Of a stretch of DNA of 64,000 nucleotides, positions 13,942 to 32,209 are shown piece by piece. The notes under the pieces were generated by a model. The model did not search any database and was not told the origin of the DNA. It saw only the letters and a program-made list of their open reading frames with translations. The position numbers and the translations under genes were made by a program. The first letter of the stretch is position 1; each line of letters starts with the position of its first letter. Origin of the DNA: Elusimicrobiales bacterium (GTDB taxonomy: Bacteria > Elusimicrobiota > Elusimicrobia > Elusimicrobiales > UBA9959); NCBI GenBank assembly GCA_028713125.1, contig JAQTOU010000003.1, positions 467,286 to 531,285 of the forward strand, written 5' to 3'.

Positions 13942-13942
13942 A

Positions 13943-15743: not shown

Positions 15744-15753
15744 ACAGCACGCT

Positions 15754-16629
15754 ATGGCGAATAAAAAATTTAAATTGTGTATCCTTCCAGGATATCGATG
15801 CAATTTCGCTTGTGCCCATTGTTCTGCCACACTAAAAACACCTCAAAGATTGGCAGATTCCGAGATCCAATCCATCTTGGCTGCGATAAAGGCCTACAGT
15901 GTAACATCCCTGCACTTTGTTGGCGGCGAACCTACCTTGTATATAGCGGACATTAACCGGATTCTCTCCGGGCTTGCTAGCCTGAAGCACACTAAAGTTA
16001 GAATTACTACTAATGGGCACTTCGGAGCGACAAAAAAATCTGCAAAAGCTGTTTTGGCCTCACTATTAAAATTAGACTATCTGCAGCTGTCTTATGACAA
16101 ATTCCATCGGGAGTTCCTTCCATTCAAAAACATACGTACACTTTACAATGTATGTTTGGAGGCGGGGGTGGAATTCAGCGTTGCAATAAGCATTCAGTCC
16201 CCTCTGGATCTGGTTCTGGCTCCGCAGTTAAAGAAAATAGGTGATTTTCCTATCGGCGTTTTAAAGGTTATGCCAGCGGGATCAGCTAGGGAAAATAATC
16301 TGGCTTATCGTTATCCAAGCTTTGACAAGAGGGTGCTGTCTAAAAAATGTCCAAATCATAAAACAATTACATATATGTGTGGTGAGGGGTTCACAAGTTG
16401 TTGTTCGTTGCTAAGTTTCGGCGAGGGCTCCGCGCGTTTTGCCCATCCGACCATGAGAGCCCACCTGAATAGTGATTTCTATAAACTAATTTCAAGACAT
16501 TCTTTCGGGGAGATAATGCGAATGTCGGGGGTGGCATCAACCCCGTTAAGTCCCGATCATTCTTCTCCATGCACTTTATGCGCGCATCTGTTCAAACTCG
16601 GGCCTGTCCGGAATATCGCAGGTATATGA
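15754..16629 (+). CDS. radical SAM protein with an extra C-terminal Cys cluster
   Basis: 291 aa. CxxxCxxC is in GYRCNFACAHCSA. SLHFVGGEPTL is the SAM-binding GGE block. C-terminal cysteines are KKCPNHKTITYMCGEGFTSCC and PCTLCAHLF. Confidence 0.75.
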   Translation: MANKKFKLCILPGYRCNFACAHCSATLKTPQRLADSEIQSILAAIKAYSVTSLHFVGGEPTLYIADINRILSGLASLKHTKVRITTNGHFGATKKSAKAVLASLLKLDYLQLSYDKFHREFLPFKNIRTLYNVCLEAGVEFSVAISIQSPLDLVLAPQLKKIGDFPIGVLKVMPAGSARENNLAYRYPSFDKRVLSKKCPNHKTITYMCGEGFTSCCSLLSFGEGSARFAHPTMRAHLNSDFYKLISRHSFGEIMRMSGVASTPLSPDHSSPCTLCAHLFKLGPVRNIAGI

Positions 16630-19705: not shown

Positions 19706-19726
19706 CTTTGCGGCCTCCTTTATAGA

Positions 19727-19756
19727 ACGGGCCCAGATGGGCCCGTTTTCTTTTCA
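19727..19756 (+). terminator. intrinsic terminator of the kinase operon
   Basis: acgggccc-agat-gggcccgt followed by tttcttttc. The U-tract runs into the first half-site of UAS site B. Confidence 0.75.
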
Positions 19757-19784
19757 AATGAAAATAAATATTTTCATTTGAGCA
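19751..19784. promoter_or_regulatory. two-dyad upstream element, site B
   Basis: TTTTCAAATGAAAA (19751-19764) and TTTTCATTTGAGCA (19771-19784), centres 20 bp apart. The order of the AA-centred and TT-centred dyads is swapped relative to sites C and D. The nearest sigma-54 promoters are about 570-600 bp away at 20329-20375. Confidence 0.5.
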
Positions 19785-19885
19785 TCTTTTGGGGTAGCCG
19801 GAAATTTGGCCGGACCCGCGCGGCCAGGCGGAATGGGGGAGGGCGGCAGTCCAATTGACTGCCGCCCCAGGCCCGGCCGGATAGT

Positions 19886-20278
19886 TTAATTCTCCCCTGA
19901 GCCGCCGCAGGCGTTGCAGGGGAAGTAGGCGTCGATACTCCCGCTTCCGCCGCAAAAATTGCACTCGTTGCTGCCGGCGCCGCCGCAGGAGCCGCAGGTC
20001 TGGTTCCCGCTGCCGCCGCAGAGATTGCAGGTCTGGGCCTCGCCGTAAACGGTCACGCTGCCTCCGCCTCCGCATTGGCCGCAGGTGTACTCGCCGTTGC
20101 CGCGGCAGTTCGAGCAGCGCTGCTGGCCGCCGCTGCAGGCGCCGCATTCATGCGACAGGTGGGTTTGCCCTGTTCCCCGGCAGGTTCTACACTCGCCCCT
20201 GGAAAGCGCTTCACTCTGAGCCACCCCGCTGATATTTATTGCGAACACTATAGCGATAATCAATTTTATCTTTTTCAT
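19886..20278 (-). CDS. secreted protein made of eight DnaJ-type CxxCxGxG zinc-finger motifs
   Basis: 130 aa with an AAGGAG RBS. Signal MKKIKLIIAIVFAINISGVAQ. The eight motifs are CRTCRGTG, CGACSGGQ, CSNCRGNG, CGQCGGGG, CNLCGGSG, CGSCGGAG, CNFCGGSG and CNACGGSG. Confidence 0.75.
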   Translation of the reverse strand: MKKIKLIIAIVFAINISGVAQSEALSRGECRTCRGTGQTHLSHECGACSGGQQRCSNCRGNGEYTCGQCGGGGSVTVYGEAQTCNLCGGSGNQTCGSCGGAGSNECNFCGGSGSIDAYFPCNACGGSGEN

Positions 20279-20328
20279 AATTCTCCTTGAGTTCCCATCA
20301 TCTGCAGAATGTGTTGTGAGCTCTGCGG

Positions 20329-20344
20329 AGCAATTGTTATGCCA
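20329..20344 (-). promoter_or_regulatory. sigma-54-type -24/-12 promoter (minus strand)
   Basis: The reverse complement reads TGGCATAACAATTGCT followed by ccgcag. GG-N10-GC spacing is exact. It lies about 50 nt upstream of the 20278 start. Confidence 0.7.
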
Positions 20345-20359
20345 AGGTCGGTTAAGCTA

Positions 20360-20375
20360 TGGCATTAAAATTGCT
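20360..20375 (+). promoter_or_regulatory. sigma-54-type -24/-12 promoter
   Basis: TGGCATTAAAATTGCT followed by ctgtag. GG-N10-GC spacing is exact. It lies about 40 nt upstream of the 20416 start and only 15 bp from the divergent promoter. Confidence 0.75.
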
Positions 20376-20415
20376 CTGTAGTCGGTGACGGGCTTGCAAA
20401 CTTTAGGAGGATAAA

Positions 20416-21081
20416 ATGAAAAAGCTGATAATAGTAGTTACCTTACTGGGGATCGCGGCGGCGCAGGTTAAAGCGCAGGATGTCGCGGGACAGTCCGGGC
20501 AGGCGGGCGCGGCCGACGCCGTATACGCCAGGGTTGTGGATGCCGAAGCTATGTCCTGGGCCTGGCGCATCGAGAGAGCTAAAGACATGAGTTATCAGAA
20601 CCTGGTGAAAGTGTCAGCCAACTGGGGCCGCGGCGAGGCCGTGCGCGGCCAGCTGCTTGCGAAGGTAAAGGAAATTGTTAATAAAGGACAGCTGCGCCGC
20701 CTGACCACCAGGGAAGATTCCGAGCTCGACGCCGCCAAGGCCGAGGCTCGCTCTATCCTTTCAGGCAGCCGGGCCCGCTCTGAAAGATCCTCCGGCCGGC
20801 GCGCGCCGAGGCAGAGCGCCATCGACGGGACCGCGCGCGAGATCCTGGAGGTCGAGGCGAAGTATTGGGCCTGGCGCATAGCCGTGGTCCGCAATATCAC
20901 CTACAATGAGCTGAAGGGCCATTCCGAGGGGTGGATGCGCGGGGTTGAGGTCAGCGATGAACTGCTGGCGAAAATAAGAATAAAACTCCAGTCCGGCGAG
21001 AACCAGGGGCTGAGCGGGGACGAACAGGCAAAGTTCGACGCTGGAAATAAAAAGATCAAACAGCTCCTCTCCCGCGCGTAA
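20416..21081 (+). CDS. secreted hypothetical protein with a two-fold internal repeat
   Basis: 221 aa with an AGGAGG RBS. Signal MKKLIIVVTLLGIAAAQVKA. Repeat units are AEAMSWAWRIERAKDMSYQNLVKVSANWGRGEAVRGQLLAKVKE and VEAKYWAWRIAVVRNITYNELKGHSEGWMRGVEVSDELLAKIRI. Confidence 0.6.
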   Translation: MKKLIIVVTLLGIAAAQVKAQDVAGQSGQAGAADAVYARVVDAEAMSWAWRIERAKDMSYQNLVKVSANWGRGEAVRGQLLAKVKEIVNKGQLRRLTTREDSELDAAKAEARSILSGSRARSERSSGRRAPRQSAIDGTAREILEVEAKYWAWRIAVVRNITYNELKGHSEGWMRGVEVSDELLAKIRIKLQSGENQGLSGDEQAKFDAGNKKIKQLLSRA

Positions 21082-21152
21082 ACCCGGGCGCGCGGCAGCC
21101 GGGAGACGGCAGCCGCGCAGTTTTCACTAAATGGTATATTGTGAGGATTAAT

Positions 21153-21956
21153 ATGAAACTTCTCTGTCTTATGCTGCTGCTGGCTTCCCCTGCTCTGGCT
21201 GATGAGGAGGAGGAACACCCGTATTTCTCTCCGGAGGAGGTACAGACCCTGGAGCCGGAGCGCTGTAAGGGCATGGTGGAGATCCCGGCCGGTCCTTTTA
21301 CTTTCGGGGATTCTTATGCCGCAGCCGGCAGGCGCACGCCGCCGGCTTTCAAGCATTTGATAAAGCCTGTCACCACAAAAACCACCGGCGCCTTCCTGAT
21401 GGACAAATGCGAAGTGACTCAGTTGCAGCAAGAAGCAGTATGGCTGATGGGGCGCGGTAAAACCGGCGACAAGCTGGACCTGAAGCAACCGAATGGAGAT
21501 CACCCCATGTTCGGGGCTAGGAAAGAATTCGCGGAGCTGTTCTGCAAGTACCTGGGCAAGCGCCTGCCCACCGAAGAGGAATGGGAGAAGGCCGCCCGCG
21601 GCGGAACCTCCACGGTATATTACTGGGGCGACGACTATAGGGATTCCAATACGTACGAGCAAAGCCCCCGGAAATACAATATGTCGGTCCCTACCGGATC
21701 TGTCGCCGAGAAAGCCCCTAACCAGTATGGGCTTTACGACATGCTCGGTAACGTGCCGGAAATGACCTCCGGCGAGTGCTGGAAAGGCGGCTCGATGATG
21801 CTTTATAGTGAATATTATGCTTCTGTCGGGCGCTGCGCGAAGGCGCCGGAGAAGGGCTGGGCGCATAGCTATGGCTGGCGCTGCGTCCGGGATATAGTTA
21901 AGCCTGTGGAGGGCGACGGGAATCAGAGCCAGGCGCAGGGAGAGGAAGTCCGGTAG
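21153..21956 (+). CDS. formylglycine-generating enzyme (FGE-sulfatase/SUMF1) family protein, secreted
   Basis: I prefer the start at ATG 21153 (GAGGA RBS; signal MKLLCLMLLLASPALA). LPTEEEWEKAARGG, NQYGLYDMLGNVPEMT and GWRCVRD blocks are typical of the FGE fold. Confidence 0.75.
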   Translation: MKLLCLMLLLASPALADEEEEHPYFSPEEVQTLEPERCKGMVEIPAGPFTFGDSYAAAGRRTPPAFKHLIKPVTTKTTGAFLMDKCEVTQLQQEAVWLMGRGKTGDKLDLKQPNGDHPMFGARKEFAELFCKYLGKRLPTEEEWEKAARGGTSTVYYWGDDYRDSNTYEQSPRKYNMSVPTGSVAEKAPNQYGLYDMLGNVPEMTSGECWKGGSMMLYSEYYASVGRCAKAPEKGWAHSYGWRCVRDIVKPVEGDGNQSQAQGEEVR

Positions 21957-22003: not shown

Positions 22004-22035
22004 AAAAAGCGGGCAATAGGCCCGCTTTTTCTTTT
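22004..22035 (+). terminator. intrinsic terminator
   Basis: agcgggc-aatag-gcccgct followed by ttttctttt. The U-tract runs into UAS site C. Confidence 0.7.
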
Positions 22036-22065
22036 CATTTGATAAGAACTATTTTCAAACGAAAA
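22032..22065. promoter_or_regulatory. two-dyad upstream element, site C
   Basis: TTTTCATTTGATAA (22032-22045) and TTTTCAAACGAAAA (22052-22065), centres 20 bp apart. The proximal centre is 84.5 bp upstream of the GG at 22143. Confidence 0.55.
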
Positions 22066-22141
22066 CATTTATCCAAGTTTGACCTTCTCAGCTGGTACTC
22101 TTTTATCCTGCAAATCCGGGTACTTGTACCCTTCTGGCTAC

Positions 22142-22157
22142 CGGCATAAAAAATGCT
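22142..22157 (+). promoter_or_regulatory. sigma-54-type -24/-12 promoter
   Basis: CGGCATAAAAAATGCT followed by tcgtcc. GG-N10-GC spacing is exact. It lies about 50 nt upstream of 22207. Confidence 0.7.
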
Positions 22158-22206
22158 TCGTCCAGGGAAAGATGTGAGATAGCGGATTCTTAAGGAGAAA
22201 GAGCTT

Positions 22207-22806
22207 ATGAAAGGCAAGTCAATTAGCAAAGTGTTGGTTGCAGCCCTTATTTTAGCGGCGGCAGCATCCGTCAATGGCTTCGCAGCTGTTCCGGCCGGTA
22301 TGGCGGATATAGTTGTGGAAGCCGGCGATATGGTCTCCATTACCATAGAGACGGTTGAAGGCAACGATATATCCTATGACCTGGAGCGCGCCGCCGCCGG
22401 AGAGCGGCCGGTGGCGGTCGAGCGAAGGCCGGGCGGCTTCCTGGTCAGGATCGCCGGAGAAGAGGCGGCTGTCGCCCGACGCGGCAAAGGCACGATGGCG
22501 GCTATTGTCACGCTGCGTATCCCTAAAGGCCGGAATGTTTCCATCAAAGGCCTCAATATGGTGGTTTCCGGGAATATCTCGGCTAAAAGCCTGCGGGTGA
22601 AAGCTTTGAGCGTCTCTATGCACGCGCTCAAGGTTTCCGCCGAGAGGGTAGACGTGGATACTGATTATGGGCAGTTCAGATTCACCCTTTCAAAGACCAA
22701 GGAATTAGCTATCAGATCCCGCCTCATTACAGGACGGATATTTCTGCCCGGCTCCGTAAAGGTCACTTGTCCTTCTTCAAAAGAGTTCACGCTGGTCAGG
22801 ACCTGA
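22207..22806 (+). CDS. secreted hypothetical protein, possibly beta-helical/adhesin-like (DUF4097-like)
   Basis: 199 aa with an AAGGAG RBS. Signal MKGKSISKVLVAALILAAAASVNGFA. It has repetitive V-S-x-x-L-x-V segments (VSIKGLNMVVSGNISAKSLRVKALSVSMHALKVSAERVDVDT). The family call is weak. Confidence 0.5.
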   Translation: MKGKSISKVLVAALILAAAASVNGFAAVPAGMADIVVEAGDMVSITIETVEGNDISYDLERAAAGERPVAVERRPGGFLVRIAGEEAAVARRGKGTMAAIVTLRIPKGRNVSIKGLNMVVSGNISAKSLRVKALSVSMHALKVSAERVDVDTDYGQFRFTLSKTKELAIRSRLITGRIFLPGSVKVTCPSSKEFTLVRT

Positions 22807-22885
22807 AGCCGCCGCGCGGCGCCTCACGCTCCCGGACTCCGATTTTGTATTATAGGGGTCTGGGAGCGGTTGCATATATAGGACG

Positions 22886-24616
22886 ATGAAAACTGATTTT
22901 AAACTGTTTCTAACGGTATTGCTGATAAGCCTCGGCCTCATGGCAGGGGTGTTCGGGTATGAATATTATGATTTTATGTACGTTCAGAAAGGGCGCTTGA
23001 GTTATGAATCGGTCCATCTCGCTTACCAGGTAACGCCCCCGGCTATTAAGGAGTATCTTCGCGCAAGCGAGAAAGAAAAGGGCGATTTTTGTAAATGGGT
23101 CTTTACTCCGGGGAAAATGGTCTATGTTTCTGTCCTGGATCCCCAGGGGAAGATGGTGTACCTGTGTACCGATAAAAACAGGGAAGCTGTTACGGCGGAC
23201 ATAGAAAAGCAGCCCCGGCACGCTCTGATCGGCACGCAGAAGATAATCGGGATCCCGGTGCTGATCGCCCGCCATCACGTCCTTTCCAATAAGGGGAAGC
23301 TCGGTTCCCTGGAAATAGCCTTCTCCTGGCTGCCACTGCATAACGAGTTCAATAAGAAGATGAAGATCTTCTTCCTCTCCTTTGGTCTTTTTGCCGCGGT
23401 CCTCGGGGTTTTGCTGGTGTACAGGGTGAGGACAGTACTGGAGCCGCTCAGTAAATTTGCCGCCAGCCTCAAGGAGATAGAGGCGGAATGGCCGCTTTCC
23501 CAGGAGGAGTTCCAGCGGCGTCTGCAGCCAGAGAAAGCCGGCCCCGAAACAAAACCTGTTCTTGAAGCTTTGAGAACCTCTCTTGTGAAACTGCTCGAGC
23601 ACCAGGAAGCGCTGCGTAAGTCCGAAGAGCTGGCCTCATTGGGAAAACTATCCGCGCAAGTGGCGCATGATATCAGGTCGCCGCTCGCGGCTTTGGGCGC
23701 CGCGGCCAAAGGTCTGGAGATGCCTGAGGACCAGCGCAAACTGGTGGAGGGCGCTGTCAGCCGAATGCAGGGGATAGCGGACGATTTGCTGCAGCGTTAC
23801 CGCGCGCCTTCAGCAGCGCAGGCCGCGGCCAAACCGGCGGCTTGCGCGCTGGCTGGTCTTATCGAGCAAGTGCTCTCTGAAAAACGCCTTCAGCACAAAG
23901 ATAAAACCGGTATTAAAATAGAATTCAATAGCGCTCCCGGAGAGATCAAAGCCCTGGTTGAGCCGAAAGAACTTCAGCGGCTTTTGTCCAACCTGGTGAA
24001 TAATTCCTTGGAAGCTTTTGATAAAGACGGGACGGTTTCCGTTTCTCTTTCGGCAGTAGACGGCAAAGTTTTGATTGAAGTGAAGGACAATGGCAAAGGC
24101 ATACCGGCGGAGATCCTCGCGAAACTGGGCCAAAAAGGCGTGACGCACGGGAAAGCCGGCGGGACCGGTCTGGGGCTTTACCACGCGCGCACCTCGGTTG
24201 AAGGCTGGGGCGGGAGCTTTAAAATAAAATCCGTGCCCGGCAAGGGCGCCACGGTTCTTATAGAGCTGCCCTGCCAGCCGGCTCCGGCGGGCGGCCTGGC
24301 CGTGCTCCTGGACGACGATTCGCTTGTGCATATGAACTGGAAACTTGCGGCCAAGGCAGCCGGCGTGGAACTTAGAGCATACAAAACCCCGGAAGATTTT
24401 GCCGCCGCGACAGAGACTTTGTCCAAGGATGCGGCTATCTATATAGATTCCGATCTTGGCAAAGACATTAAAGGCGAAGACATCGCCAAAGACCTGCGCG
24501 AAAAAGGCTTTACCGATATAACCATGGCCACCGGCCACGGTTCCGAAAAGTTCTCCCGCCTCCCCTGGCTCAAAGTAACCGGCAAAGAGCCGCCCTGGGC
24601 AAGTGGACAGTCCTAA
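22886..24616 (+). CDS. hybrid sensor histidine kinase (2-TM sensor, HisKA, HATPase_c, C-terminal receiver)
   Basis: 576 aa. H-box AQVAHDIRSPLAAL, then the same transmitter/receiver as the 18026 kinase. The N-terminal 250 aa are unrelated to it. Confidence 0.85.
   Translation: MKTDFKLFLTVLLISLGLMAGVFGYEYYDFMYVQKGRLSYESVHLAYQVTPPAIKEYLRASEKEKGDFCKWVFTPGKMVYVSVLDPQGKMVYLCTDKNREAVTADIEKQPRHALIGTQKIIGIPVLIARHHVLSNKGKLGSLEIAFSWLPLHNEFNKKMKIFFLSFGLFAAVLGVLLVYRVRTVLEPLSKFAASLKEIEAEWPLSQEEFQRRLQPEKAGPETKPVLEALRTSLVKLLEHQEALRKSEELASLGKLSAQVAHDIRSPLAALGAAAKGLEMPEDQRKLVEGAVSRMQGIADDLLQRYRAPSAAQAAAKPAACALAGLIEQVLSEKRLQHKDKTGIKIEFNSAPGEIKALVEPKELQRLLSNLVNNSLEAFDKDGTVSVSLSAVDGKVLIEVKDNGKGIPAEILAKLGQKGVTHGKAGGTGLGLYHARTSVEGWGGSFKIKSVPGKGATVLIELPCQPAPAGGLAVLLDDDSLVHMNWKLAAKAAGVELRAYKTPEDFAAATETLSKDAAIYIDSDLGKDIKGEDIAKDLREKGFTDITMATGHGSEKFSRLPWLKVTGKEPPWASGQS
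23653..24600 (+). repeat. transmitter-receiver module, copy 2 (paralogous to 18755-19705)
   Basis: See copy 1. The proteins share ...LPWLKVTGKEPPW at the end. Confidence 0.8.
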
Positions 24617-24669
24617 ATCATGATAAACGCCAAACATGGATGAAAAAGAGGGCTTTAGCTCTCCTTTTT

Positions 24670-24702
24670 GTTTCATTTGAGAATATTATTTTCAAATGAA
24701 AA
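24670..24702. promoter_or_regulatory. two-dyad upstream element, site D
   Basis: GTTTCATTTGAGAA (24670-24683) and TTTTCAAATGAAAA (24689-24702), centres 19 bp apart. The proximal centre is 95.5 bp upstream of the GG at 24791. Confidence 0.55.
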
Positions 24703-24789
24703 TATATTAAGCTGTTTAAATACTTCCAAAATGCAAACGAAACATGGTCTTTACTGCTAAATGCAGTGAAAATGGCCGTTTATTTGCAT

Positions 24790-24805
24790 TGGCATAAATA
24801 TTGCT
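24790..24805 (+). promoter_or_regulatory. sigma-54-type -24/-12 promoter of precursor A
   Basis: TGGCATAAATATTGCT followed by ttgtag. GG-N10-GC spacing is exact. Confidence 0.8.
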
Positions 24806-24852
24806 TTGTAGTGGGTGCAGGCGGACAAAACAGATATAAGGGGATAAATACA

Positions 24853-24984
24853 ATGGAAAATCTTAGGAATGTGATCGCGAAAGCCGGCATCGTACTGCCC
24901 GAAGTGACCCTAGCGCAGGAAGCCGATAAGAACTTATGCGGTCAGACCTGCATCGGCTGCACCACCGGTTTGCTCGGGGGCTGA
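24853..24984 (+). CDS. RiPP precursor peptide A (43 aa, Cys-rich core)
   Basis: MENLRNVIAKAGIVLPEVTLAQEADKNLCGQTCIGCTTGLLGG. AAGGGG RBS 9 nt upstream. The sigma-54 promoter lies inside the longer track ORF (24766), so the start must be the downstream ATG. Confidence 0.8.
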   Translation: MENLRNVIAKAGIVLPEVTLAQEADKNLCGQTCIGCTTGLLGG

Positions 24985-25008
24985 GAAAGATATGCGCAAG
25001 GTGGCGGG

Positions 25009-25032
25009 CACGTAGTGGCTAACCACTGCGTG
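25009..25032 (+). promoter_or_regulatory. conserved post-precursor hairpin A (attenuator or processing/stability element)
   Basis: cacgtagtgg (25009-25018) / ccactgcgtg (25023-25032): 10 bp with one G-U. A T6 run follows at 25042-25047. Confidence 0.5.
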
Positions 25033-25104
25033 TCCGGTTCATTTTTTGACGGTGCACAGACGTTCGCCGGGAGCGGGCTCAGCAGTTTATCGCCTTCAGA
25101 GTAT

Positions 25105-25120
25105 TGGCATAAAAAATGCT
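25105..25120 (+). promoter_or_regulatory. sigma-54-type -24/-12 promoter of precursor B
   Basis: TGGCATAAAAAATGCT followed by tcgtag. GG-N10-GC spacing is exact. Confidence 0.8.
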
Positions 25121-25167
25121 TCGTAGTGGGCGTAGGCAAACAAAACAGATATAAGGGGATAAATACA

Positions 25168-25296
25168 ATGGAAAATCTTAAGAATGTGATCGCGAAAGCC
25201 GGCATCGTACTACCCGAAGTGAACCTCGCTCAGGATGACAAATCGGTATGCGATGTGACCTGCGTCGGCTGCACCACTGGGCTGCTCGGGGCCTAA
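25168..25296 (+). CDS. RiPP precursor peptide B (42 aa, Cys-rich core)
   Basis: MENLKNVIAKAGIVLPEVNLAQDDKSVCDVTCVGCTTGLLGA. It has the same RBS and leader as precursor A. The core keeps C-x3-C-x2-C-TTGLLG. Confidence 0.8.
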   Translation: MENLKNVIAKAGIVLPEVNLAQDDKSVCDVTCVGCTTGLLGA

Positions 25297-25320
25297 GACA
25301 GATCAGCACTATATGGCGGG

Positions 25321-25344
25321 CACGCAGTGGCTTACCGCTGCGTG
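25321..25344 (+). promoter_or_regulatory. conserved post-precursor hairpin B
   Basis: cacgcagtgg / ccgctgcgtg at the same relative position as hairpin A, with base changes that keep the pairing. A second hairpin follows (cctgtgc...gcacagg, about 25345-25385). Confidence 0.5.
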
Positions 25345-25445
25345 CCTGTGCGGCAGTCGAATGGGCTTCGGCTGGCAGGCACAGGTGAAATCACGGTGGT
25401 TTTTGGAATTTTGCCGGGAATAGGTATTTTGATAAACTGTCTGAT

Positions 25446-26861
25446 ATGAATTATAGCGAAAATATCGGCGAGGCCTATTCTCTTCCTGACAATACATATT
25501 TGAGAAAAGAGAAACACAACGTTTGCCTTTATCTGGTCAGCCCTGAAACCAATATGATGGGCAACTACAATATCCTTTCACCATATCAGGCCATCCTGCT
25601 GGCCATGTTCGACGGGGAACAGACTTTAAGCGCCGTTTGCGCTTTGGCGGCGGAGGCCTTCGGCTCGAAAATGACGCCTGAGCAGATCTTTGAAACGCAT
25701 GTCAAGTTCTTGTTCGAGAAAGAATTTCTTGTGAAAGCGGCTGGCTGCAAAAAGAAGAACAGGTATTCTCCCGTCGATTTCATAATCCCGGCAGAACTGA
25801 CGGACCTGCGCAAAAACCGGCCGGAGCGCCCGCTGGTGGTGGTCTGGCATCTGACCGAGAAATGCTTCTGCTACTGCGATTATTGTTATGCCGAGCGTCC
25901 TTCTTTCCGGGCTGAGGAACTATTAACGGACCAGCGGATGCTGCAGTTGGCCGACGAGATAGTGGCGGCGGACGTGCGCGTAGTCACCCTGGCGGGAGGC
26001 GATCCGCTCCAGAACCCGCTGGTTTTCGACATCGTCGCCAAGCTGAAGTCGAATAATATCGCCGTCTACCTTTCCACAAAAACGCTGTTAGACGCCGCTG
26101 CGGCGGATAAACTTCGCGATGCGGGCATCGGCCTTATGCAGGTCTCGTTAGACTCGCTTAACCCGGAGACCTGCCTGAAACTGCACAAGCATCACGGGCA
26201 CGGGCTCAAAATGCTCGACTCGATCAAGCTGCTCAAGGAGCGCGGGCTCAGGGTCAACACCAATACCGTGGTTACCGGCGTTAACGTCCACGAGGTCCGC
26301 GCCCTGGTGGACAAACTGCTGGAACTGAAGGTGGACCGGATAGGCCTGGCCCAGTATTCAAAAAGCCTTTACCAGCATAAAGACTATTTGTTCCTCAGCC
26401 CGGAACAGAAAGAGTCCCTGCTCGCCCTGGTAAAGGAATATAAAGGCAAAGGCCATCCTGTCCATTGCTCCGAAGCGGGAGACTTCTCTTCTCTCTCTCT
26501 CGAAGCGAAAAAGAAAAAGTTCGCTAAAAGGACATTATGCAGCGGGCTATTCAACGGCGGGGTTATCTTCCCCAACGGGAAAATGACCATATGCGAGCAG
26601 CTGCCGGTCTCCAGCCCGTTTTTCTGGGGTGACCTCAGGAAACAGAGCCTGCTGGAGGCGTGGAGCAGCCCGGACTTCGCCCGGATAAAGCTTCCTCCCA
26701 AGGAAAATTTTAAAGGACGCCCCTGCTTTGACTGCAAGGATTTTGAAGACTGCCATACGAAATACGGGAGATGCGTGCGCAACGCCGTTCAGGCCTACGG
26801 GGATATGTGGGCCCCTGACCCGTCCTGCCCGGAATCCAAAGCGGGAAGCAGGGTGGCGTAA
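25446..26861 (+). CDS. radical SAM/SPASM peptide maturase with an N-terminal PqqD-like RRE
   Basis: 471 aa. The N-terminal SPYQAILLAMFDGEQTLSAVCALAAEAFG...FLFEKEFLV is PqqD/RRE-like. CxxxCxxC is in LTEKCFCYCDYCYAE. C-terminal SPASM-type cysteines are TLCSGLFNGGVIFPNGKMTICEQL and GRPCFDCKDFEDCHTKYGRC. Confidence 0.85.
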   Translation: MNYSENIGEAYSLPDNTYLRKEKHNVCLYLVSPETNMMGNYNILSPYQAILLAMFDGEQTLSAVCALAAEAFGSKMTPEQIFETHVKFLFEKEFLVKAAGCKKKNRYSPVDFIIPAELTDLRKNRPERPLVVVWHLTEKCFCYCDYCYAERPSFRAEELLTDQRMLQLADEIVAADVRVVTLAGGDPLQNPLVFDIVAKLKSNNIAVYLSTKTLLDAAAADKLRDAGIGLMQVSLDSLNPETCLKLHKHHGHGLKMLDSIKLLKERGLRVNTNTVVTGVNVHEVRALVDKLLELKVDRIGLAQYSKSLYQHKDYLFLSPEQKESLLALVKEYKGKGHPVHCSEAGDFSSLSLEAKKKKFAKRTLCSGLFNGGVIFPNGKMTICEQLPVSSPFFWGDLRKQSLLEAWSSPDFARIKLPPKENFKGRPCFDCKDFEDCHTKYGRCVRNAVQAYGDMWAPDPSCPESKAGSRVA

Positions 26862-27805
26862 TGATCAAAGTCGAGGGCTTGAAAAAAGCGTACGGCCAGG
26901 TAGCCGCCGTGGACGGGCTGAACTTCGGGGTAAAGAAGGGCGAATGCTATTGCCTCCTGGGCCCGAACGGGGCCGGCAAAACCACGACCCTGAAAATGCT
27001 CACCGGGCAGCTGGCGCCCGACGGCGGGCTGGTAACTATCTCCGGGCTTGACCCGCTGGCGGACGAGAAAAAGGTGCTCGAGCTGATAAACATCATCCCG
27101 CAGCACCATGCCATGGACCCGTTCCTTACGGTGGAAGAGAACCTGGTCTTCTACGGGCTGCTCCAGAAAATAAAATTAAAGAGCATTAAAGCCCGTCTCA
27201 ATCACTGCCTGGACGCTTTCGAACTGCGAAAAATTAAAGATAAAAAGGTGACCGAGCTTTCAGGCGGAGAATATCGCCGGGCGCAGATCTCCCGCGCGTT
27301 CATCAAGGAAGCGCCCCTTCTTTTCATGGACGAGCCCACGGCGAACCTGGATATTATTTTCAAGAACAAGTTCTGGGACCTGATCAAAGAGGAAAAGAAA
27401 AAAGGCGTCACGGTCCTGCTTAACACCCACGATTTCAACGAGGCGGAAGTCCTGAGCGACAGGGTCGGGTTCGTCTTCAAGGGCAAGATCGTCTGCGACG
27501 ACACGGTCGGGCGGCTGAAAGGCCTGACCGCCAAGAGCATTATCGCGATAAAGTTCGTCTCTCCGGAAGCGGCCAGCGAGTCGGCCGGGGAACTTCGCGG
27601 CATTTTCGGCGAGGAGAACGTCTCGGAGGCCTCTGCCGGCACGATGGAATTAAAGGTGCGGGAATTCGACGGGAAGTTCTTTTCCCTCCTTCAGCGGATC
27701 CCGGCCCGCGACATCGTTTCGTTCGAGGTCAAACATCCGACGCTTAACGACGTCTTCCGGGTCTTAGGAAAAATCCATGCTGGCAATACTGTGGCGAGAT
27801 CTTAA
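26861..27805 (+). CDS. ABC transporter ATP-binding protein
   Basis: 314 aa. TAATG overlap with the maturase stop. Walker A GPNGAGKTT, signature LSGGEYRRAQISRA, Walker B LLFMDEPTANLD. Confidence 0.9.
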   Translation: MIKVEGLKKAYGQVAAVDGLNFGVKKGECYCLLGPNGAGKTTTLKMLTGQLAPDGGLVTISGLDPLADEKKVLELINIIPQHHAMDPFLTVEENLVFYGLLQKIKLKSIKARLNHCLDAFELRKIKDKKVTELSGGEYRRAQISRAFIKEAPLLFMDEPTANLDIIFKNKFWDLIKEEKKKGVTVLLNTHDFNEAEVLSDRVGFVFKGKIVCDDTVGRLKGLTAKSIIAIKFVSPEAASESAGELRGIFGEENVSEASAGTMELKVREFDGKFFSLLQRIPARDIVSFEVKHPTLNDVFRVLGKIHAGNTVARS

Positions 27806-28535
27806 AACACAATACACGAAAGTGTTCTGGCTGATAGCGAACTTCTGCCCGCCGCTGTTCTATCTGTTCTTTTTCGCCCTGATCTTTTCCAGTTCGATGA
27901 AACCTATGATGCCGGGCGGACCCCAGACCAGCTACCTGACGTTCTTCCTGCCCGGGCTCATCATCATGCAGTCTTTCAGCGTCTTCCAGACGACTTTCTC
28001 GCTGGTACACCTCGACAAAAGACTGAAGATCCTGGAAACCATACGGACCACCAGGACTACCGTGGTCGAGTATTTCTTCGCCAAATCCATAGGCGCGCAG
28101 GTGCTGGCTTTCGCCAGGGCCCTGCTGGTGTATTTGATCGGCGTAGTGTTCTTTCATATAACTTTGAGCGCCTCGAGCTTTCTTGCCCTTTCGCTGACGC
28201 TGCTGCTGTCCAATGCGATCTGGTTCAATCTCGGTTTCGTGCTTGGGTTCATGATAGAAACTGAGGAAAAAAGGGATATCTTCCAGCAGCTGTTCACCCT
28301 GCCCGTGACTTTTCTTTCCACTATTTATTATTCCGCCAGTAATGTGCCCGGCGGGCTCGCCGCCTTCGTAAGGCTCAATCCCCTGACCGCGGCCAGCAAT
28401 CTTTCGAGAGGCGCGCTGCTGGACCCCGGGTTCTCAGGCCGCGCGGACGCCTATTTCCTGTCCGTTTACCTGGCGCTCAGCCTCTGCGGCGCCTGGGCTT
28501 TTTTCCGCTTCACGCGCAAAGAGTCTTTTTCATAA
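27777..28535 (+). CDS. ABC-2 type transporter permease
   Basis: 252 aa with about 6 TM helices. It overlaps the ATPase gene by 29 nt. The exact start is uncertain. Confidence 0.75.
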   Translation: MLAILWRDLKTQYTKVFWLIANFCPPLFYLFFFALIFSSSMKPMMPGGPQTSYLTFFLPGLIIMQSFSVFQTTFSLVHLDKRLKILETIRTTRTTVVEYFFAKSIGAQVLAFARALLVYLIGVVFFHITLSASSFLALSLTLLLSNAIWFNLGFVLGFMIETEEKRDIFQQLFTLPVTFLSTIYYSASNVPGGLAAFVRLNPLTAASNLSRGALLDPGFSGRADAYFLSVYLALSLCGAWAFFRFTRKESFS

Positions 28536-28616
28536 AAACCGCCGCCGGGCGAACATGCCGATGGCCTTTGCTGCCGGCCTGTTCCGGCTTCCGATGCTCT
28601 CTGGTTCTCCACGGGT

Positions 28617-28650
28617 AAAGCCGGCTTTAAAGGCCGGCTTTTTCTTTTCC
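28617..28650 (+). terminator. intrinsic terminator of the RiPP operon
   Basis: aaagccggc-tttaaag-gccggcttt followed by ttcttttc. The U-tract runs into UAS site E. Confidence 0.75.
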
Positions 28651-28678
28651 TAATGAAATAAATATTTTCATATGAAAA
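28645..28678. promoter_or_regulatory. two-dyad upstream element, site E
   Basis: TTTTCCTAATGAAAT (28645-28659) and TTTTCATATGAAAA (28665-28678). The proximal centre is 71.5 bp upstream of the GG at 28743. Confidence 0.5.
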
Positions 28679-28741
28679 TATTCCGAGCTGTTTATGTGCC
28701 GTCCCCGCTGGGAAAGGGCAAAAAACAGCCATGCCTACTAA

Positions 28742-28837: not shown

Positions 28838-29437
28838 ATGAAGAAAGAACTTAAAGCGGTGTGCGGGATGGTCCTGGCGGCAGCGGCGGTACTCTGCGCG
28901 GGCAGGGCCGGCGCGCAGACCAGCATAAACATGGAGCCGGCAGGGTATATCATGAAGCCGGCGGCCTGGGGCCAGGTTTCCCGGCCTTCCTCTTCCGACA
29001 GGCTTTCAGAGGCCGCGGAAAGCCTTGCCGAGGCGGCTAAATCAGGGGACAATGCAAAAACTGAAGCTTTGCTTGCGAATCTTTACTCAGGAGCTGCCGG
29101 GAAAGAAGCCGCTGCCCCTGTATATGCCGGGAACAGGCAAACTGCATCCGCGCCTGTAGCCGCCGCGCCGGCTCCCGCCGCTCCCGCACAGATGAAGCTG
29201 GCGCCCGACCGCGCTTCGGCAGTGGAGGAACTGGAAGAGTCGGCCGATGAGTCCGTCTCGGAGGATGAGGACGCTGATGTAAAAGCCGACGATGCTGAAG
29301 ATGAAGCTCCCGCGGAGGTTGCTGCTGATGACGTGGGGGATGCGGCTGCTGAGGAGAAGCCTAAGCAGAGCTTCTGGGACACCCTGCTCGGCGGCGGCCT
29401 TGGTATGCTTCTGGTGATCCTGCTTCTCTTGCTGTGA
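28838..29437 (+). CDS. secreted acidic Ala-rich protein with a C-terminal hydrophobic anchor
   Basis: 199 aa. Signal MKKELKAVCGMVLAAAAVLCAGRAGAQ. It has a low-complexity A/E/D-rich middle and ends ...FWDTLLGGGLGMLLVILLLLL. Confidence 0.6.
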   Translation: MKKELKAVCGMVLAAAAVLCAGRAGAQTSINMEPAGYIMKPAAWGQVSRPSSSDRLSEAAESLAEAAKSGDNAKTEALLANLYSGAAGKEAAAPVYAGNRQTASAPVAAAPAPAAPAQMKLAPDRASAVEELEESADESVSEDEDADVKADDAEDEAPAEVAADDVGDAAAEEKPKQSFWDTLLGGGLGMLLVILLLLL

Positions 29438-29443
29438 AAGAGG

Positions 29444-29626
29444 TCAGGCTTTATCTATCTGGGCGAGTATCTTGATTATTTCCGCGGCGGCGGCGTTCAT
29501 CAGGGCCAGCATCTCTTTCTTCTCGACCGCCGAGCAATCCTTGTAAAGTTCCGCGGCGCTTTTGAGGCTGGAGCACTTGGACCGCAAGTCGTGCAGAAGC
29601 TTGCTGCTGTCTGGCGTAGTGGTCAT
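29444..29626 (-). CDS. 60-aa helical protein with an Hpt-like His motif (candidate phosphotransfer protein)
   Basis: ATGA start/stop overlap with the upstream enhancer-binding protein gene (29626-29623). MTTTPDSSKLLHDLRSKCSSLKSAAELYKD... resembles the Hpt motif H-x-L-K/R-G/S-S-x-x-x-L/G. Confidence 0.45.
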   Translation of the reverse strand: MTTTPDSSKLLHDLRSKCSSLKSAAELYKDCSAVEKKEMLALMNAAAAEIIKILAQIDKA

Positions 29627-30972
29627 TTCTTTTCTCCCTCCGGTTCTATCCCCAGCTTCTTCAGGGTCGAATATAAAAGCCTTGTCGAAATTTTAAGGTC
29701 GGCCATTGTTTTGGTCTTCTTGCCCTCGTTCTCACGCAGGTTCCTCGTGATTATTTCGCCGGAAACTTTATCCAGCGCGGCCTCGAGGCCGTTCGCCATA
29801 GCGTAGGCGTAAAGCCCGCCGTCACCGGCGGAGGCGGGCTGCGCCGCTTCCCGCCCTTTAAGATGCTTCGCGACGGTGTTTATATCCACCCGGCCTTCCG
29901 AGCCGCTCGAGACCAGGTCCACGAACTTCTTGAGCTCGCGCACATTTCCGGTCCAGGAGTAAGTCTCCATATAAGCCCTCGCTTCCGGGGTGAAAGACAG
30001 TCTCCGGCGGCCGCTGGTGAAGTGCTGCACCAGGGGGGCTATGTCGCAGGCCCGGCGCGAGAGCGGCTTGAGGTTTATAGTGTAGCCGTGCACGCGCTGG
30101 AAAAGGTCGAAGCGCATTTTGCCCTGGGCGATCAGCGTCTGCGGGTCTTCAAGCGTCGCGCTTATGATGCGGAACTCGGAATGCTCCGGCTTTTCAGAGC
30201 CGAGCGGGTAGAAAGAGCGCTCCTCTATGGCCTTCAGCAGCTTCATCTGCATTCCAAGGCTCATCGTGCCTATCTCGTCGAGGAAAAGAGTTCCCTTATG
30301 CGCTTCCAGGAGACGGCCTTTGCGGGTTTCGTGGGCCCCGGTGAAAGCGCCTTTTTTATGGCCGAACATTTCGGCCTCGAGCAGGTCCTCGGTATAAGCC
30401 GAGCAGTTTATCGAGACGAAAGCGCCTTCGCGGCCTGAATGTTCGTGGAGTATCTTGGCCAGCGAGGTTTTCCCGGTGCCCGACGGCCCGAGTATAAGGA
30501 TCGGCAGCTCGGTTGGCGCGTATTTCAGGGCTTCGGAAGCGGCGGCTTTGGTTTCCGGGTCGCAGGTGATGAAGGCCGAGGAAAAAATATCTTTTGCGCC
30601 GGCGGCTTTCCTGTTCTGTATGAACTTGCGCAGGATGTCGGCCACATTCGATTCTTCGTTTCCTTTCGCGTAAAAATCATTTGCGCCAAGCGCGTAGGCC
30701 CGGTCGATAGTCTCGTCCGAGTCGGAGCTGGATACCACGACGCAAAAAACGCCTCTCGCCGCCGCGGCGGCTATCGCTTTAAGGCCGGAGTAATCGTCGT
30801 CCGGGCCGAGCATCAGGTCGAAGAAGCCGATATCGTATTTCACGCTTTCGATCTTCTTGAGCGCCGTTTTCAGGTCCCCGGCCAGGTCGATATTATGTCC
30901 CGCCAGATGCGCGGACATGACCTTCTGCGCCAGTTTATCGTCTTCCAGAACCAGTATATTGAGTTTTTCCAT
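29623..30972 (-). CDS. sigma-54-dependent response regulator (NtrC-family bacterial enhancer-binding protein)
   Basis: 449 aa. Receiver domain (ILVLEDD...FFDLML...). AAA+ domain with Walker A GPSGTGKTS, the GAFTGA loop (HKKGAFTGAHE) and LFLDEIG. C-terminal Fis-type HTH (KTKTMADLKISTRLLYSTLKKLGI). Confidence 0.9.
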   Translation of the reverse strand: MEKLNILVLEDDKLAQKVMSAHLAGHNIDLAGDLKTALKKIESVKYDIGFFDLMLGPDDDYSGLKAIAAAAARGVFCVVVSSSDSDETIDRAYALGANDFYAKGNEESNVADILRKFIQNRKAAGAKDIFSSAFITCDPETKAAASEALKYAPTELPILILGPSGTGKTSLAKILHEHSGREGAFVSINCSAYTEDLLEAEMFGHKKGAFTGAHETRKGRLLEAHKGTLFLDEIGTMSLGMQMKLLKAIEERSFYPLGSEKPEHSEFRIISATLEDPQTLIAQGKMRFDLFQRVHGYTINLKPLSRRACDIAPLVQHFTSGRRRLSFTPEARAYMETYSWTGNVRELKKFVDLVSSGSEGRVDINTVAKHLKGREAAQPASAGDGGLYAYAMANGLEAALDKVSGEIITRNLRENEGKKTKTMADLKISTRLLYSTLKKLGIEPEGEKK

Positions 30973-31153: not shown

Positions 31154-32209
31154 ATGAAACCTCACGGCTTTAAATTCACCGCTTCAACAGGAGCGAGAAC
31201 TTCGACCGCCCTCATGGGCGCGCTTAAGATGGCGCATATGGCCGGGATGAGCGAGGAAGAGTTCGAGAAATACCTCAAAGAAATGGAGGGCGGCCGGGTT
31301 TTCCAGTTGCTTAAAACCTCCGGGGTGATAAATCTGAGCGAATTCCCCGCGGCGCGCTACGCGGCGCGCCAGTACGCGGGTTACGGCCTTAAACTTTCCG
31401 GCGGCGACCTGCCCGAGCTGGCCGACGGCAATGGCGACCTGGTAGAGCTTATACAGGGCGTAGGGCAGGAGAAGTTCGAGGCCTGCTTCCTCAAAGACGC
31501 CGTGATGAGCGATATAGAGCGCGCCGAAGAATGCGATATTACCGTGAAAGACGCGGAGCGCCTGCGCGATTTCGTGAACAAGGCTTTCATCCAGGCGGAG
31601 TTCGAGGGGGCCGTGGAAGCACCGGCGGCGAAAGTCTTCAGCGCCGTGGCCGGGATAGAAGTCAAGGACGGCGAGCCGCTGCTCGCTTTCTTCCACCGCG
31701 AGATCTGGAAGGGCCGCTATAAAGTGGACTCCGACAAGCTCGCGCAGCTTCTGCCCGGACTCGAGCCGGCCGAGCGCAGCCGCGTGGAAAAAATGCTGAA
31801 AAAAATTGAATTCGCGGATAAGCGCAAGACCACGCTCTACCGCACGCTCGAGATCCTGATCAGCGTGCAGGCGGATTACCTTGCCAGCGGAGAGCCGGGC
31901 CGGCGCCGCCCGCTTTCGCAGAAAACCCTGGCCAAGAATCTCGAGGTGGACGCGAGCGTTATAAACCGGCTCGTTTCCAATAAGTCCATACAAATGCCAT
32001 GGGGCATGGAAGCGCCGATAAGCGTGCTGCTGCCGACTTCAAAAGCGGTTAACCTGGAGCGCCTTTACGCCATAGCGGGCGAGAAGCCGGAACTGAGCGA
32101 TGAAAAGCTCCGCGTCGAGCTGAAAACCCGCCACGGCGTGGACCTCTCCCGCCGCTCGGTGGCCCAATACCGCAAAGACCTGAGCCTTGCGGCCTCCGGG
32201 GACAGATAG
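31154..32209 (+). CDS. short, divergent sigma-54 (RpoN) family protein
   Basis: 351 aa with an AGGAGA RBS. The C-terminus aligns by eye to RpoN: RKTTLYRTLEILISVQADYL (cf RNDTLLRVSRCIVEQQ), the HTH LSQKTLAKNLEVDASVINRLVSNKSIQMPWG (cf ...HESTISRVTTQKYLHSPRG) and an RpoN-box-like SRRSVAQYRKDLSL (cf ARRTVAKYRESLSI). The N-terminal region I is poorly conserved. Confidence 0.7.
   Translation: MKPHGFKFTASTGARTSTALMGALKMAHMAGMSEEEFEKYLKEMEGGRVFQLLKTSGVINLSEFPAARYAARQYAGYGLKLSGGDLPELADGNGDLVELIQGVGQEKFEACFLKDAVMSDIERAEECDITVKDAERLRDFVNKAFIQAEFEGAVEAPAAKVFSAVAGIEVKDGEPLLAFFHREIWKGRYKVDSDKLAQLLPGLEPAERSRVEKMLKKIEFADKRKTTLYRTLEILISVQADYLASGEPGRRRPLSQKTLAKNLEVDASVINRLVSNKSIQMPWGMEAPISVLLPTSKAVNLERLYAIAGEKPELSDEKLRVELKTRHGVDLSRRSVAQYRKDLSLAASGDR

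Follow-up and report, generated by a model that had tools for sequence, protein, structure and literature searches.

Our analysis of a 64-kb stretch of DNA from an Elusimicrobiales bacterium (hereafter the window, to whose positions all coordinates refer) centred on an operon at 24670-28650 for a peptide that is made on ribosomes and modified after translation (RiPP), in which two cysteine-rich precursor genes precede the genes for a radical S-adenosylmethionine (SAM) maturase and an ABC exporter. The operon itself is real and lies where the original prediction, made from the sequence alone, had placed it. We consider it likely that the region is a RiPP operon with a radical SAM maturase, for which we propose a thioether-bridged product, and that it is carried on an exchangeable 6.7-kb cassette (22066-28739). 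Its enzymology is of a familiar type, the enzyme clade is uncharacterised, and the control logic and the organisation of the cassette are unusual.

Precursor Genes and Operon Architecture

Two small open reading frames (ORFs) of 43 and 42 amino acids (aa), precursors A and B (Table 1), have the near-identical leader and the diverging cores that had been described for them. In both copies the leader conforms to [DE]-N-L-[KR]-x-x-I-x-x-A-G and the core to C-x3-C-[IV]-G-C-T-T-G-L-L-G. The genes lie within a segment of about 315 bp that is duplicated in tandem; the two copies, at 85% column identity, each span promoter, ribosome-binding site (AAGGGG in front of precursor A), ORF, and downstream hairpin. 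Their codons differ by 8 synonymous and 9 non-synonymous changes with the stop codon in register, and within the CTTGLLG block by 3 synonymous and 0 non-synonymous changes, which argues that the precursors are real coding sequence. Judged by this comparison, the pattern is that of a translated gene in which the leader and the C-terminal motif appear constrained and the middle is freer to vary.

The maturase gene is joined to that of the ABC ATPase by the predicted TAATG overlap, the ABC-2 permease gene follows, and a hairpin with a T-run closes the operon, all in agreement with the original prediction. No peptidase gene was found inside the operon, as had also been stated. Since the DrrA/ABC-2 transporter has no peptidase domain recognised by Pfam or NCBIfam, it may serve export, self-protection, or both.

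The claim that the precursors belong to no named family held up: neither matches a Pfam or NCBIfam model, the SCIFF precursor model (TIGR03973) included, even at E≤10, and in a search of 5.8 billion proteins each finds only its paralogue. The small ORFs are conserved all the same, since a homologous precursor, MDNLKEKIHQAGLNVSDGTAVNGSSGICGNCIVCTPGGILAN, stands before a maturase relative of 45% identity in a JGI metagenome (L007), followed by a 314-aa ABC ATPase (45%) and a 252-aa ABC-2 permease (46%). This precursor has the leader M[DE]NL[KR]xxIxxAG and the core C-[IV]-x-C-T-x-G in common with those of the window, and the sharing of precursor, enzyme, and transporter indicates that the three were inherited together. 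The precursor family is unnamed and has two sources so far.

The Maturase and Its Relatives

The prediction of a 471-aa enzyme with a CX3CX2C radical SAM site and C-terminal SPASM cysteines is borne out by Pfam, which scores Radical_SAM (PF04055) at 77 bits and SPASM (PF13186) at 30 bits. The site C140-x3-C144-x2-C147 is invariant in 49 family members, as are all seven cysteines of the SPASM set, C365-x12-G378-x4-C383, C427-x2-C430-x5-C436-x6-C443, and C461. By definition, a SPASM domain carries two auxiliary Fe-S clusters on seven cysteines arranged as C-x9-15-G-x4-C ... C-x2-C-x5-C-xn-C ... C; the spacing C436-x6-C443 departs from the usual x3.

The proposed PqqD-like RiPP recognition element (RRE), a domain of the winged helix-turn-helix type built from three helices and a three-stranded sheet, finds support in predicted structure and none in sequence models. 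An AlphaFold model of the whole maturase (pLDDT 94.4) matches SuiB best, over about 475 columns that include all three domains (E 1e-18), followed by PqqE and SkfB. For a separate model of residues 1-118 (pLDDT 92.5), the best Foldseek matches are leader-bound TbiB1, PqqD, the RRE of PbtF, the N-terminus of SuiB, ThcOx, and MibB. Two points count against the assignment: Pfam and NCBIfam sequence models detect no PqqD/RRE domain in the maturase, and the E-values to the RREs are weak (3e-3 to 5e-2, at target-normalised TM-scores of 0.63-0.68). Four of the five top-ranked matches are RRE domains, and more of them turn up lower down among unrelated hits; because of this consistency we accept the predicted N-terminal domain as a PqqD-like RRE, at the level of fold only.

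In a full HMMER scan of 1.84 billion representative proteins, 259 scored at E≤1e-30. The listed ones mostly have lengths of 450-500 aa and align nearly full length, including the N-terminal domain; the closest are 45%, 37%, and 33% identical. None of 49 members reaches any curated NCBIfam cutoff, and the clade is therefore unnamed. When the NCBIfam radical SAM-SPASM models were run on 25446-26861, the maturase fell far under every cutoff and into no non-peptide family: the best match was TIGR04053 (101 bits versus 395), with PqqE (TIGR02109) at 77 versus 381 and StsB (NF045574) at 51 versus 625. The named families TIGR04053, GeoRSP, NirJ, PqqE, MftC, ScmE/F, StsB, WgkB, and DynA are ruled out by these curated cutoffs, and no SCIFF or CcpM model turned up in the matches listed for the maturase (the best 25 of 56) and for its 48 relatives. 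A profile search against PDB sequences placed PqqE first (2e-39), then BlsE, SkfB, SuiB, and MoaA, with the anaerobic sulfatase maturase anSME at 1e-10. A word-indexed protein search found one relative (L001, 26% identity) with the maturase alone and a distant 477-aa subfamily only with a 49-sequence profile; scans of GTDB genome contigs gave no match, and a metagenome scan gave, among the matches listed, partial relatives of about 26% identity only (L003-L006), which were not used.

Small Cys-containing ORFs adjoin the maturase in all seven relatives examined (L001, L007, L008, L009, L010, L011, and L013), and the gene order radical SAM-ABC-ABC-2 recurs in L007, L008, L011, and L012. In L008, the 37% relative, an ORF with ...AAEGTCSLACASSCMVCRSTYT precedes these three genes; L011/L012 (P0016) add a small Cys-rich ORF to them, and L010 carries a 75-aa ORF with six cysteines. 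In L013 the ORF (MSDLKEQLQDAGLV...CIGDSCIACTDSCVFCTNSCLWSTGGC) has the leader motif and contains the unit C-[IV]-x-C-T twice. This core unit is recurrent (CIGCT and CVGCT in the window, CIVCT in L007, CIACT and CVFCT in L013), as is the leader motif [DE]-x-L-[KR]-x-x-[IL]-x-x-A/x-G-[LIV], or more loosely L-[KR]-x-x-[IL]-x-x-x-[GN]-[LIV].

In Caldanaerobius fijiensis (L009, 5001-8496), a gene for a 556-aa glycosyltransferase and two Cys-rich ORFs of 57 and 58 aa come after the family member. One of the two ORFs bears a weak, below-cutoff resemblance (16 bits) to the CXXX-repeat RiPP family AC3_0185, and the system may be a glycosylated variant. The distant L001 (1-7961) holds a different RiPP-like cluster, in which a 59-aa ORF ending in ...ADCKSCANGWHW, with the aromatic-rich core CKSCANGWHW, accompanies a B12-binding radical SAM protein, a DUF5838 protein, and an amine oxidase.

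Table 1. Features of the operon, its cassette, and the adjoining control genes (window positions).
Feature	Coordinates	Strand	Remarks
Palindrome pair (22030-22067) and sigma-54 promoter (22143-22157) opening the cassette	22030-22157	+	Promoter GGCATAAAAAATGCT
Toastrack/LiaG-like secreted protein	22207-22806	+	199 aa; first cassette gene; Pfam DUF4097, weak
Membrane histidine kinase (hybrid)	22886-24616	+	576 aa; C-terminal receiver-like extension; within cassette
Tandem palindromic upstream activating sequence, putative activator binding site	24668-24704	.	TTGTTTCATTTGAGAATA plus TATTTTCAAATGAAAATA
Sigma-54 -24/-12 promoter of precursor A	24790-24805	+	TGGCATAAATATTGCT
Precursor peptide A	24853-24984	+	43 aa, MENLRNVIAKAGIVLPEVTLAQEADKNLCGQTCIGCTTGLLGG; leader MENLRNVIAKAGIV..., core ...LCGQTCIGCTTGLLGG
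Hairpin after precursor A, terminator or attenuator	25005-25036	+	14-bp GC-rich stem, U-run
Sigma-54 -24/-12 promoter of precursor B	25105-25120	+	TGGCATAAAAAATGCT
Precursor peptide B	25168-25296	+	42 aa, MENLKNVIAKAGIVLPEVNLAQDDKSVCDVTCVGCTTGLLGA; leader as in A, core ...VCDVTCVGCTTGLLGA
Paralogous hairpin after precursor B	25316-25349	+	No U-run; pairing kept by one-sided changes versus copy A
RRE-radical SAM-SPASM peptide maturase (RRE at fold level)	25446-26861	+	471 aa
ABC transporter ATPase, DrrA-type	26861-27805	+	314 aa; overlaps maturase stop codon (TAATG)
ABC-2 type permease	27777-28535	+	252 aa; 29-nt overlap with ATPase gene
Intrinsic terminator ending the operon	28617-28641	+	Hairpin, then T-run
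Secreted Ala-rich acidic protein	28838-29437		199 aa; C-terminal hydrophobic tail; own palindrome and sigma-54 promoter
60-aa ORF with HDLRS motif	29444-29626	-	4-nt overlap with activator gene
NtrC-type sigma-54 enhancer-binding response regulator	29623-30972	-	449 aa; REC, Sigma54_activat 187 bits, HTH-like C-terminal tail
Sigma-54-like protein	31154-32209	+	351 aa; DNA-binding domain of sigma-54 only

Putative Sigma-54 Promoters and Activator Palindromes

The original prediction had the operon depend on sigma-54 and an enhancer-binding protein. That reading has gained from promoter motifs with palindromes upstream of them, from an NtrC-type activator gene in the neighbourhood, and from the same module in front of lanthipeptide precursors in a sister genome (see below). 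Sigma-54-dependent promoters are characterised by GG at -24 and GC at -12, spaced as TGGCA-N6/7-TGC. Both precursors lie behind a TGGCAT-N6-TGCT (-24/-12) promoter, and no sigma-70-like site was found ahead of them. The window holds 5 copies of the strict motif TGGCAY-N6-TGCT where 0.17 would be expected, and 8 of the looser GGCAY-N6-TGYT where 1.55 would be, the latter always in intergenic leader regions (7086, 20329(-), 20361, 22143, 24791, 25106, 28743, and 31095). A palindrome, TATTTTCA-N2-TGAAAATA (≤3 mismatches), is found at 9 sites against 0.14 expected, all intergenic and often as tandem pairs directly after a terminator. Palindromes end 60-90 bp upstream of the promoters at 7086, 22143, 24790, 28742, and 31095, that is, of five of the eight looser sites, the distance from the pair at 24668-24704 to promoter A being about 85 bp; the pair 19749/19769 has no promoter in this range. 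On these motifs, the putative promoters of the operon are part of a local regulon of palindromes.

The hairpins behind the two precursor genes suggest a division of labour between the promoters. The U-run hairpin after precursor A (-29.6 kcal/mol, z = -4.6) has the features of a strong intrinsic terminator or an attenuator, and promoter A would yield mainly a short, abundant precursor-A transcript ending there. Transcription from promoter B would pass the second hairpin, which lacks a U-run, and give a longer transcript that takes in the maturase and transporter genes; this second hairpin probably stabilises or processes the RNA while letting transcription continue to the enzyme genes.

Of the adjoining control genes, the activator and the 60-aa ORF are conserved as a pair at ≥90% identity in other Elusimicrobiota metagenome-assembled genomes (MAGs). 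The gene of the sigma-54-like protein runs divergently from that of the activator, behind a palindrome (30995) and a promoter (31095, TGGCATAAAAAATGTT) of its own. Its product scores 64.5 bits with TIGR02395 (cutoff 277), has an unmatched N-terminal stretch of 217 residues, and is kept by several Elusimicrobiota MAGs at ≥90% identity; this protein could be a short, atypical paralogue of sigma-54.

A separate pair of back-to-back sigma-54 promoters, 20329(-)/20361(+), has no palindrome within 100 bp, the nearest pair (19749/19769) being about 560 bp off. These promoters flank a minus-strand gene for a secreted protein of about 130 aa and plus-strand genes for a 221-aa protein of unknown kind and an FGE-sulfatase-domain protein (21141-21956), and the block 19749-21956 is conserved in the sister genome.

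A Variable Slot Shared with a Sister Genome

On either side of the operon, the sister genome L014 (GCA_021811315.1) can be aligned with the window at nucleotide identities of 87-93%, its positions 18668-20981 corresponding to window 22065-19748 and its positions 8773-12203 to window 32201-28740. The left synteny breakpoint, 22065, falls within the palindrome module and the right one at a promoter; a further break lies at a palindrome pair (19748). Between the breakpoints, the cassette of the window (22066-28739) holds the genes for the toastrack-like protein, a histidine kinase, the two precursors, the maturase, and the ABC and ABC-2 proteins, while the same interval in L014 is a class III lanthipeptide cassette. 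This consists of four tandem 36-aa ORFs (e.g., MNNILELQKLENLENENAQKSFSTLSVMDCQNGGGN) with the class III motif S-x2-S-x3-C, two small proteins of which one is LiaG/toastrack-like (16655-17347), a LanKC class III lanthionine synthetase (738 bits versus a cutoff of 575), and an ABC exporter. The same terminator, tandem palindromes, and TTGGCATAAATATTGCT stand ahead of the lanthipeptide precursors, and the 15-mer GGCATAAATATTGCT is identical in promoter A and in front of them. The toastrack-like protein of the window is 28% identical to its L014 counterpart (E 3e-15), and proteins of this kind may be a shared immunity or sensing accessory of both RiPP cassettes.

A conserved core adjoins the exchanged segment. 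The activator and the sigma-54-like protein have cluster mates of ≥90% identity in MAGs that NCBI names as Elusimicrobia or Elusimicrobiota, L014 among them. Other relatives keep the sigma-54-like protein, the activator, the 60-aa ORF, and an acidic secreted protein some 190 aa long, differing beside this core in having kinases and a transposase, or a CPBP protease. The secreted acidic protein, which matches no family, is part of the core beside the activator in all relatives examined and is 54% identical in L014. Read from this synteny, the operon is cargo of a variable slot in a conserved, putatively sigma-54-dependent control region, and in two genomes the slot holds RiPP clusters of unrelated classes. 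That unrelated classes lie behind one control module gives independent comparative support to both the RiPP and the sigma-54 readings. The GC content of the cassette (0.48-0.57, flanks 0.57-0.59) gives no clear sign of recent foreign origin.

Two further blocks of the window differ from L014. At 15323-19705, a block non-syntenic with L014, a strong match to the 2dG-II purine-type riboswitch (85.6 bits), which has a terminator to itself (15387-15417), stands ahead of genes for a 65-aa secreted ORF (15485-15682), a 291-aa radical SAM protein nearest the YydG peptide epimerases (61 bits, below cutoff), a 487-aa protein without family, and a histidine kinase paralogous to that of the cassette. This may be a second peptide-modification cassette, for which a nucleoside riboswitch would be an odd partner. 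The segment 38816-41634 (about 2.8 kb, with an 863-aa ORF at 38820-41411) is absent from the otherwise collinear L014 contig and is a strain-specific insertion.

Discussion

What would the operon make? In the pathway that we envisage, the RRE would bind the leader motif of the precursors, and a 5'-deoxyadenosyl radical formed by the maturase would lead to the joining of cysteine sulfur to a carbon of nearby residues, giving thioethers of the sactipeptide type (to C-alpha) or the ranthipeptide type (to C-beta or C-gamma) with a loss of 2 Da each. We infer thioether crosslinking from analogy to known systems. The recurrence of C-phi-x-C-T makes a Cys-X3-Thr ring one candidate: its Cys(i)/Thr(i+4) spacing is that of the Cys-X3-Asp unit used by PapB and is near the Cys32-Thr37 of SCIFF peptides, and the known ranthipeptide crosslinks, Cys32-Thr37 and Cys-X3-Asp, span few residues and provide precedent for radical SAM thioethers of the Cys-Thr and Cys-X3-Asp types (PMC8172795). 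The glycines past the last cysteine recall the Cys-Gly sactionines of streptosactin (PMC10288494). The ABC-2 transporter would then export the product, protect the producer, or do both, and the leader would be removed by a protease encoded outside the operon.

Candidates for this protease are encoded elsewhere in the window: TldD/E (12562-15238), an S41 peptidase (8893-10404), a CPBP/Rce1-like protease (7922-8662), and an M16 pair (3941-6897). All but the M16 pair lie downstream of another palindrome and sigma-54 promoter module (6993/7086), with no strong terminator between 7151 and 15238. The same-strand genes of this block (6993-15238) encode a 234-aa protein of unknown kind, the Rce1-like CPBP protease, the S41 peptidase, a MacB-type ABC transporter, and the TldD/PmbA pair, and it is possible that they act in trans in processing and export of the peptide. 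Within 2434-6897, a gene for a B12-binding radical SAM protein (2434-3816) adjoins the minus-strand M16 pair (3941-5347 and 5359-6897). M16 pairs such as AlbE/F accompany some sactipeptide clusters.

How does this system compare with those already described? Like the ranthipeptide/SCIFF systems (CteA-CteB of thermocellin, Tte1186a-Tte1186, and PapA-PapB of freyrasin), it has a short precursor whose C-terminal core is Cys-rich, with Thr or Ser close to Cys (C-x-x-C-T), and an RRE-radical SAM-SPASM maturase encoded beside the precursor. It differs from them in matching neither SCIFF model, in having three cysteines only and another leader motif, in its DrrA/ABC-2 transporter and putative sigma-54 control, and in its host, a diderm Elusimicrobiota member and not a Firmicute; the chemistry of the window system is a prediction. 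Among the sactipeptides, subtilosin is made by SboA-AlbA with the transporter AlbC/D and the M16 peptidases AlbE/F, and streptosactin by StsA-StsB/GggB. The window system resembles this class in its radical SAM-SPASM enzyme with RRE, its ABC transporter in the operon, an M16 pair in the neighbourhood, and three cysteines with acceptor-type residues including Gly after them, as in the core motif CxCxCx4GxGxG (PMC10288494). It departs from them in its low StsB score and in having the peptidases outside the operon, and with only seven residues after the last cysteine its tail is too short to form long nested hairpins like those of subtilosin or thuricin.

SuiB (StrB; streptide), the best structural match, has the same three domains along its whole length, no solved structure is closer in sequence than PqqE, and the N-terminal domain resembles PqqD, but the sequence identities are 16-22%, no pqqA-D genes occur in the window, and the C-C bonds of SuiB and PqqE are made on Lys-Trp or Glu-Tyr, residues absent from the window cores. 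With class III lanthipeptides (LanKC; labionin, S-x2-S-x3-C) the system shares, through the L014 cluster, the slot, the terminator/palindrome/promoter module, precursors multiplied in tandem, a gene of the LiaG/toastrack kind, and an ABC transporter; their kinase/lyase/cyclase enzymes contrast with radical SAM chemistry, and the precursor families are unrelated. Its regulation recalls NtrC-type two-component and LuxQ-LuxU-LuxO-like sigma-54 circuits, which likewise combine a kinase in the membrane with an AAA+ activator of the response-regulator type that has an HTH at its C-terminus, and -24/-12 promoters with palindromes upstream of them. It differs from them in the genes controlled, RiPP precursors and secreted proteins, in a nearby sigma-54-like protein that has the DNA-binding domain only, and in its putative phosphorelay parts. 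Our literature search found no paper linking Elusimicrobia or Elusimicrobiota with RiPPs and none focused on sigma-54 or enhancer-binding-protein control of RiPP clusters; sigma-54 and RiPP terms occur together in two genome-mining papers only.

Several observations weigh against our interpretation. The precursor family has one clear homologue among billions of proteins, and the maturase reaches no NCBIfam cutoff. The maturase start has no obvious Shine-Dalgarno sequence, which would fit a low enzyme-to-substrate stoichiometry. The nearest solved relatives, PqqE by sequence and SuiB by fold, make C-C bonds and not thioethers. As to regulation, promoter B has no palindrome of its own, the sole sigma-54-like gene in the window encodes the atypical 351-aa protein, and L007 appears to use another regulator, with no sigma-54 motif directly before its precursor. 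Four alternatives were considered.

What is the relevance of a sensor kinase inside the cassette? Its gene lies immediately upstream of the precursors and would be exchanged with them, and its product is near-identical to the paralogue encoded at 18026-19705 in the cytoplasmic part (transmitter about 90%) but differs in the sensor part. This split suggests that cassette-specific inputs may feed a common relay: the cassette kinase would signal, possibly via the 60-aa ORF, to the palindrome-binding activator. By eye, the last ~100 residues of the kinase (24100-24616; VLLDDD..., IYIDSDL, ...GKEPP) look like a divergent receiver, and the HDLRS motif of the 60-aa ORF (29444-29626) resembles a kinase H-box. 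No family model supports either a receiver-like tail or a histidine phosphotransfer (HPt)-like ORF, and the phosphorelay is speculation only. It is conceivable, though we tend to doubt it, that the product is primarily a signalling peptide, an autoinducer sensed by the cassette hybrid kinase and acting through the shared activator in a positive feedback like that of LuxQ-LuxU-LuxO, in contrast to a bacteriocin exported and resisted via the ABC-2 pump. The position of the kinase in the swapped cassette, its divergent sensor on a transmitter about 90% identical, and the coupling of the HDLRS-containing ORF to the activator are in keeping with such a role, and published papers connect ranthipeptides, quorum sensing, and Clostridium. 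Against it, the L014 lanthipeptide cassette has no kinase, ABC-2/DrrA-type pumps are typical of export or self-resistance, and the proposed HPt role and receiver tail were read by eye and match no family.

The same operon could also serve a different chemistry, with the maturase catalysing C-C or C-O crosslinks, epimerisation, or another oxidation of cysteine, and with the cysteines disulfide-bonded or metal-binding. The bonds made by PqqE (Glu-Tyr) and SuiB (Lys-Trp) and the aromatic-rich core of the distant L001 point in this direction, and radical SAM-SPASM phylogeny is a poor predictor of chemistry (PMC10288494). We judge this unlikely, because the window cores have neither an aromatic residue nor a Lys, Glu, or Tyr such as known C-C crosslinks employ, because cysteine is the sole feature common to the putative substrates of all relatives examined, and because the C-x-x-C-T/S units resemble SCIFF-type motifs (PMC8172795). 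Thioether crosslinking is the chemistry that we favour.

With regard to transcription, we find it very improbable that the sigma-54-like motifs are coincidental and that a housekeeping sigma factor transcribes the operon. Such a reading could draw on the lack of a canonical full-length rpoN in the window, on the motif-free precursor of L007, and on the -12 element of L008, which reads TTTCA and not TTGCA; the L008 candidate as a whole (TGGCAC-N5-TTTCA) overlaps a TATAAT-like box, is ambiguous, and was not counted as support for a sigma-54 promoter. It would have to account for the excess and intergenic placement of the eight looser motifs, five of them with a palindrome at 60-90 bp, for the missing sigma-70-like site, for the retention of the module in L014 ahead of different genes, and for the adjacent NtrC-type activator.

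The remaining alternative, that the maturase is a non-peptide radical SAM enzyme, anSME-like or of cofactor biosynthesis, and the small ORFs are not its substrates, could appeal to the nearby FGE-sulfatase-domain protein and to NirJ, AhbD, and MoaA among the top, low-scoring NCBIfam matches, but is largely refuted and scarcely credible, since all such scores lie 4- to 7-fold under cutoff, anSME is a weak match beside PqqE, the N-terminal domain is of RRE fold, relatives in seven independent contexts have small Cys-containing ORFs beside them with a homologous precursor in L007, no sulfatase gene is adjacent, and the FGE-domain protein is a different kind of protein.

We further speculate, with more reservation than conviction, that the lineage keeps a conserved sigma-54 core and slots between terminator/palindrome/promoter modules, into which unrelated RiPP cassettes are exchanged by recombination, some of them bringing a sensor kinase matched to the resident relay. 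On that view the system would serve as a signal-controlled peptide arsenal or a signalling device of a plug-and-play kind, and the radical SAM product would have a new crosslink type on C-phi-x-C-T-x-G.

The finding overturns nothing in current understanding; it is a good lead for genome mining, and the concept of the slot suits comparative genomics. Elusimicrobiota are almost entirely uncultured, and two precursors of the 43-aa class with one enzyme make a small, concrete, expressible gene set. Though it has no name, the maturase clade is widespread (at least 259 representatives), and among radical SAM thioether peptides the recurrent core unit C-phi-x-C-T may represent a ring topology that is new. 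The regulation is less ordinary, with RiPP precursors directly behind putative -24/-12 promoters with activator palindromes. One control module serving two RiPP classes at one locus points to a natural exchange of cassettes, which could guide genome mining beside the conserved activator as well as promoter-swap engineering.

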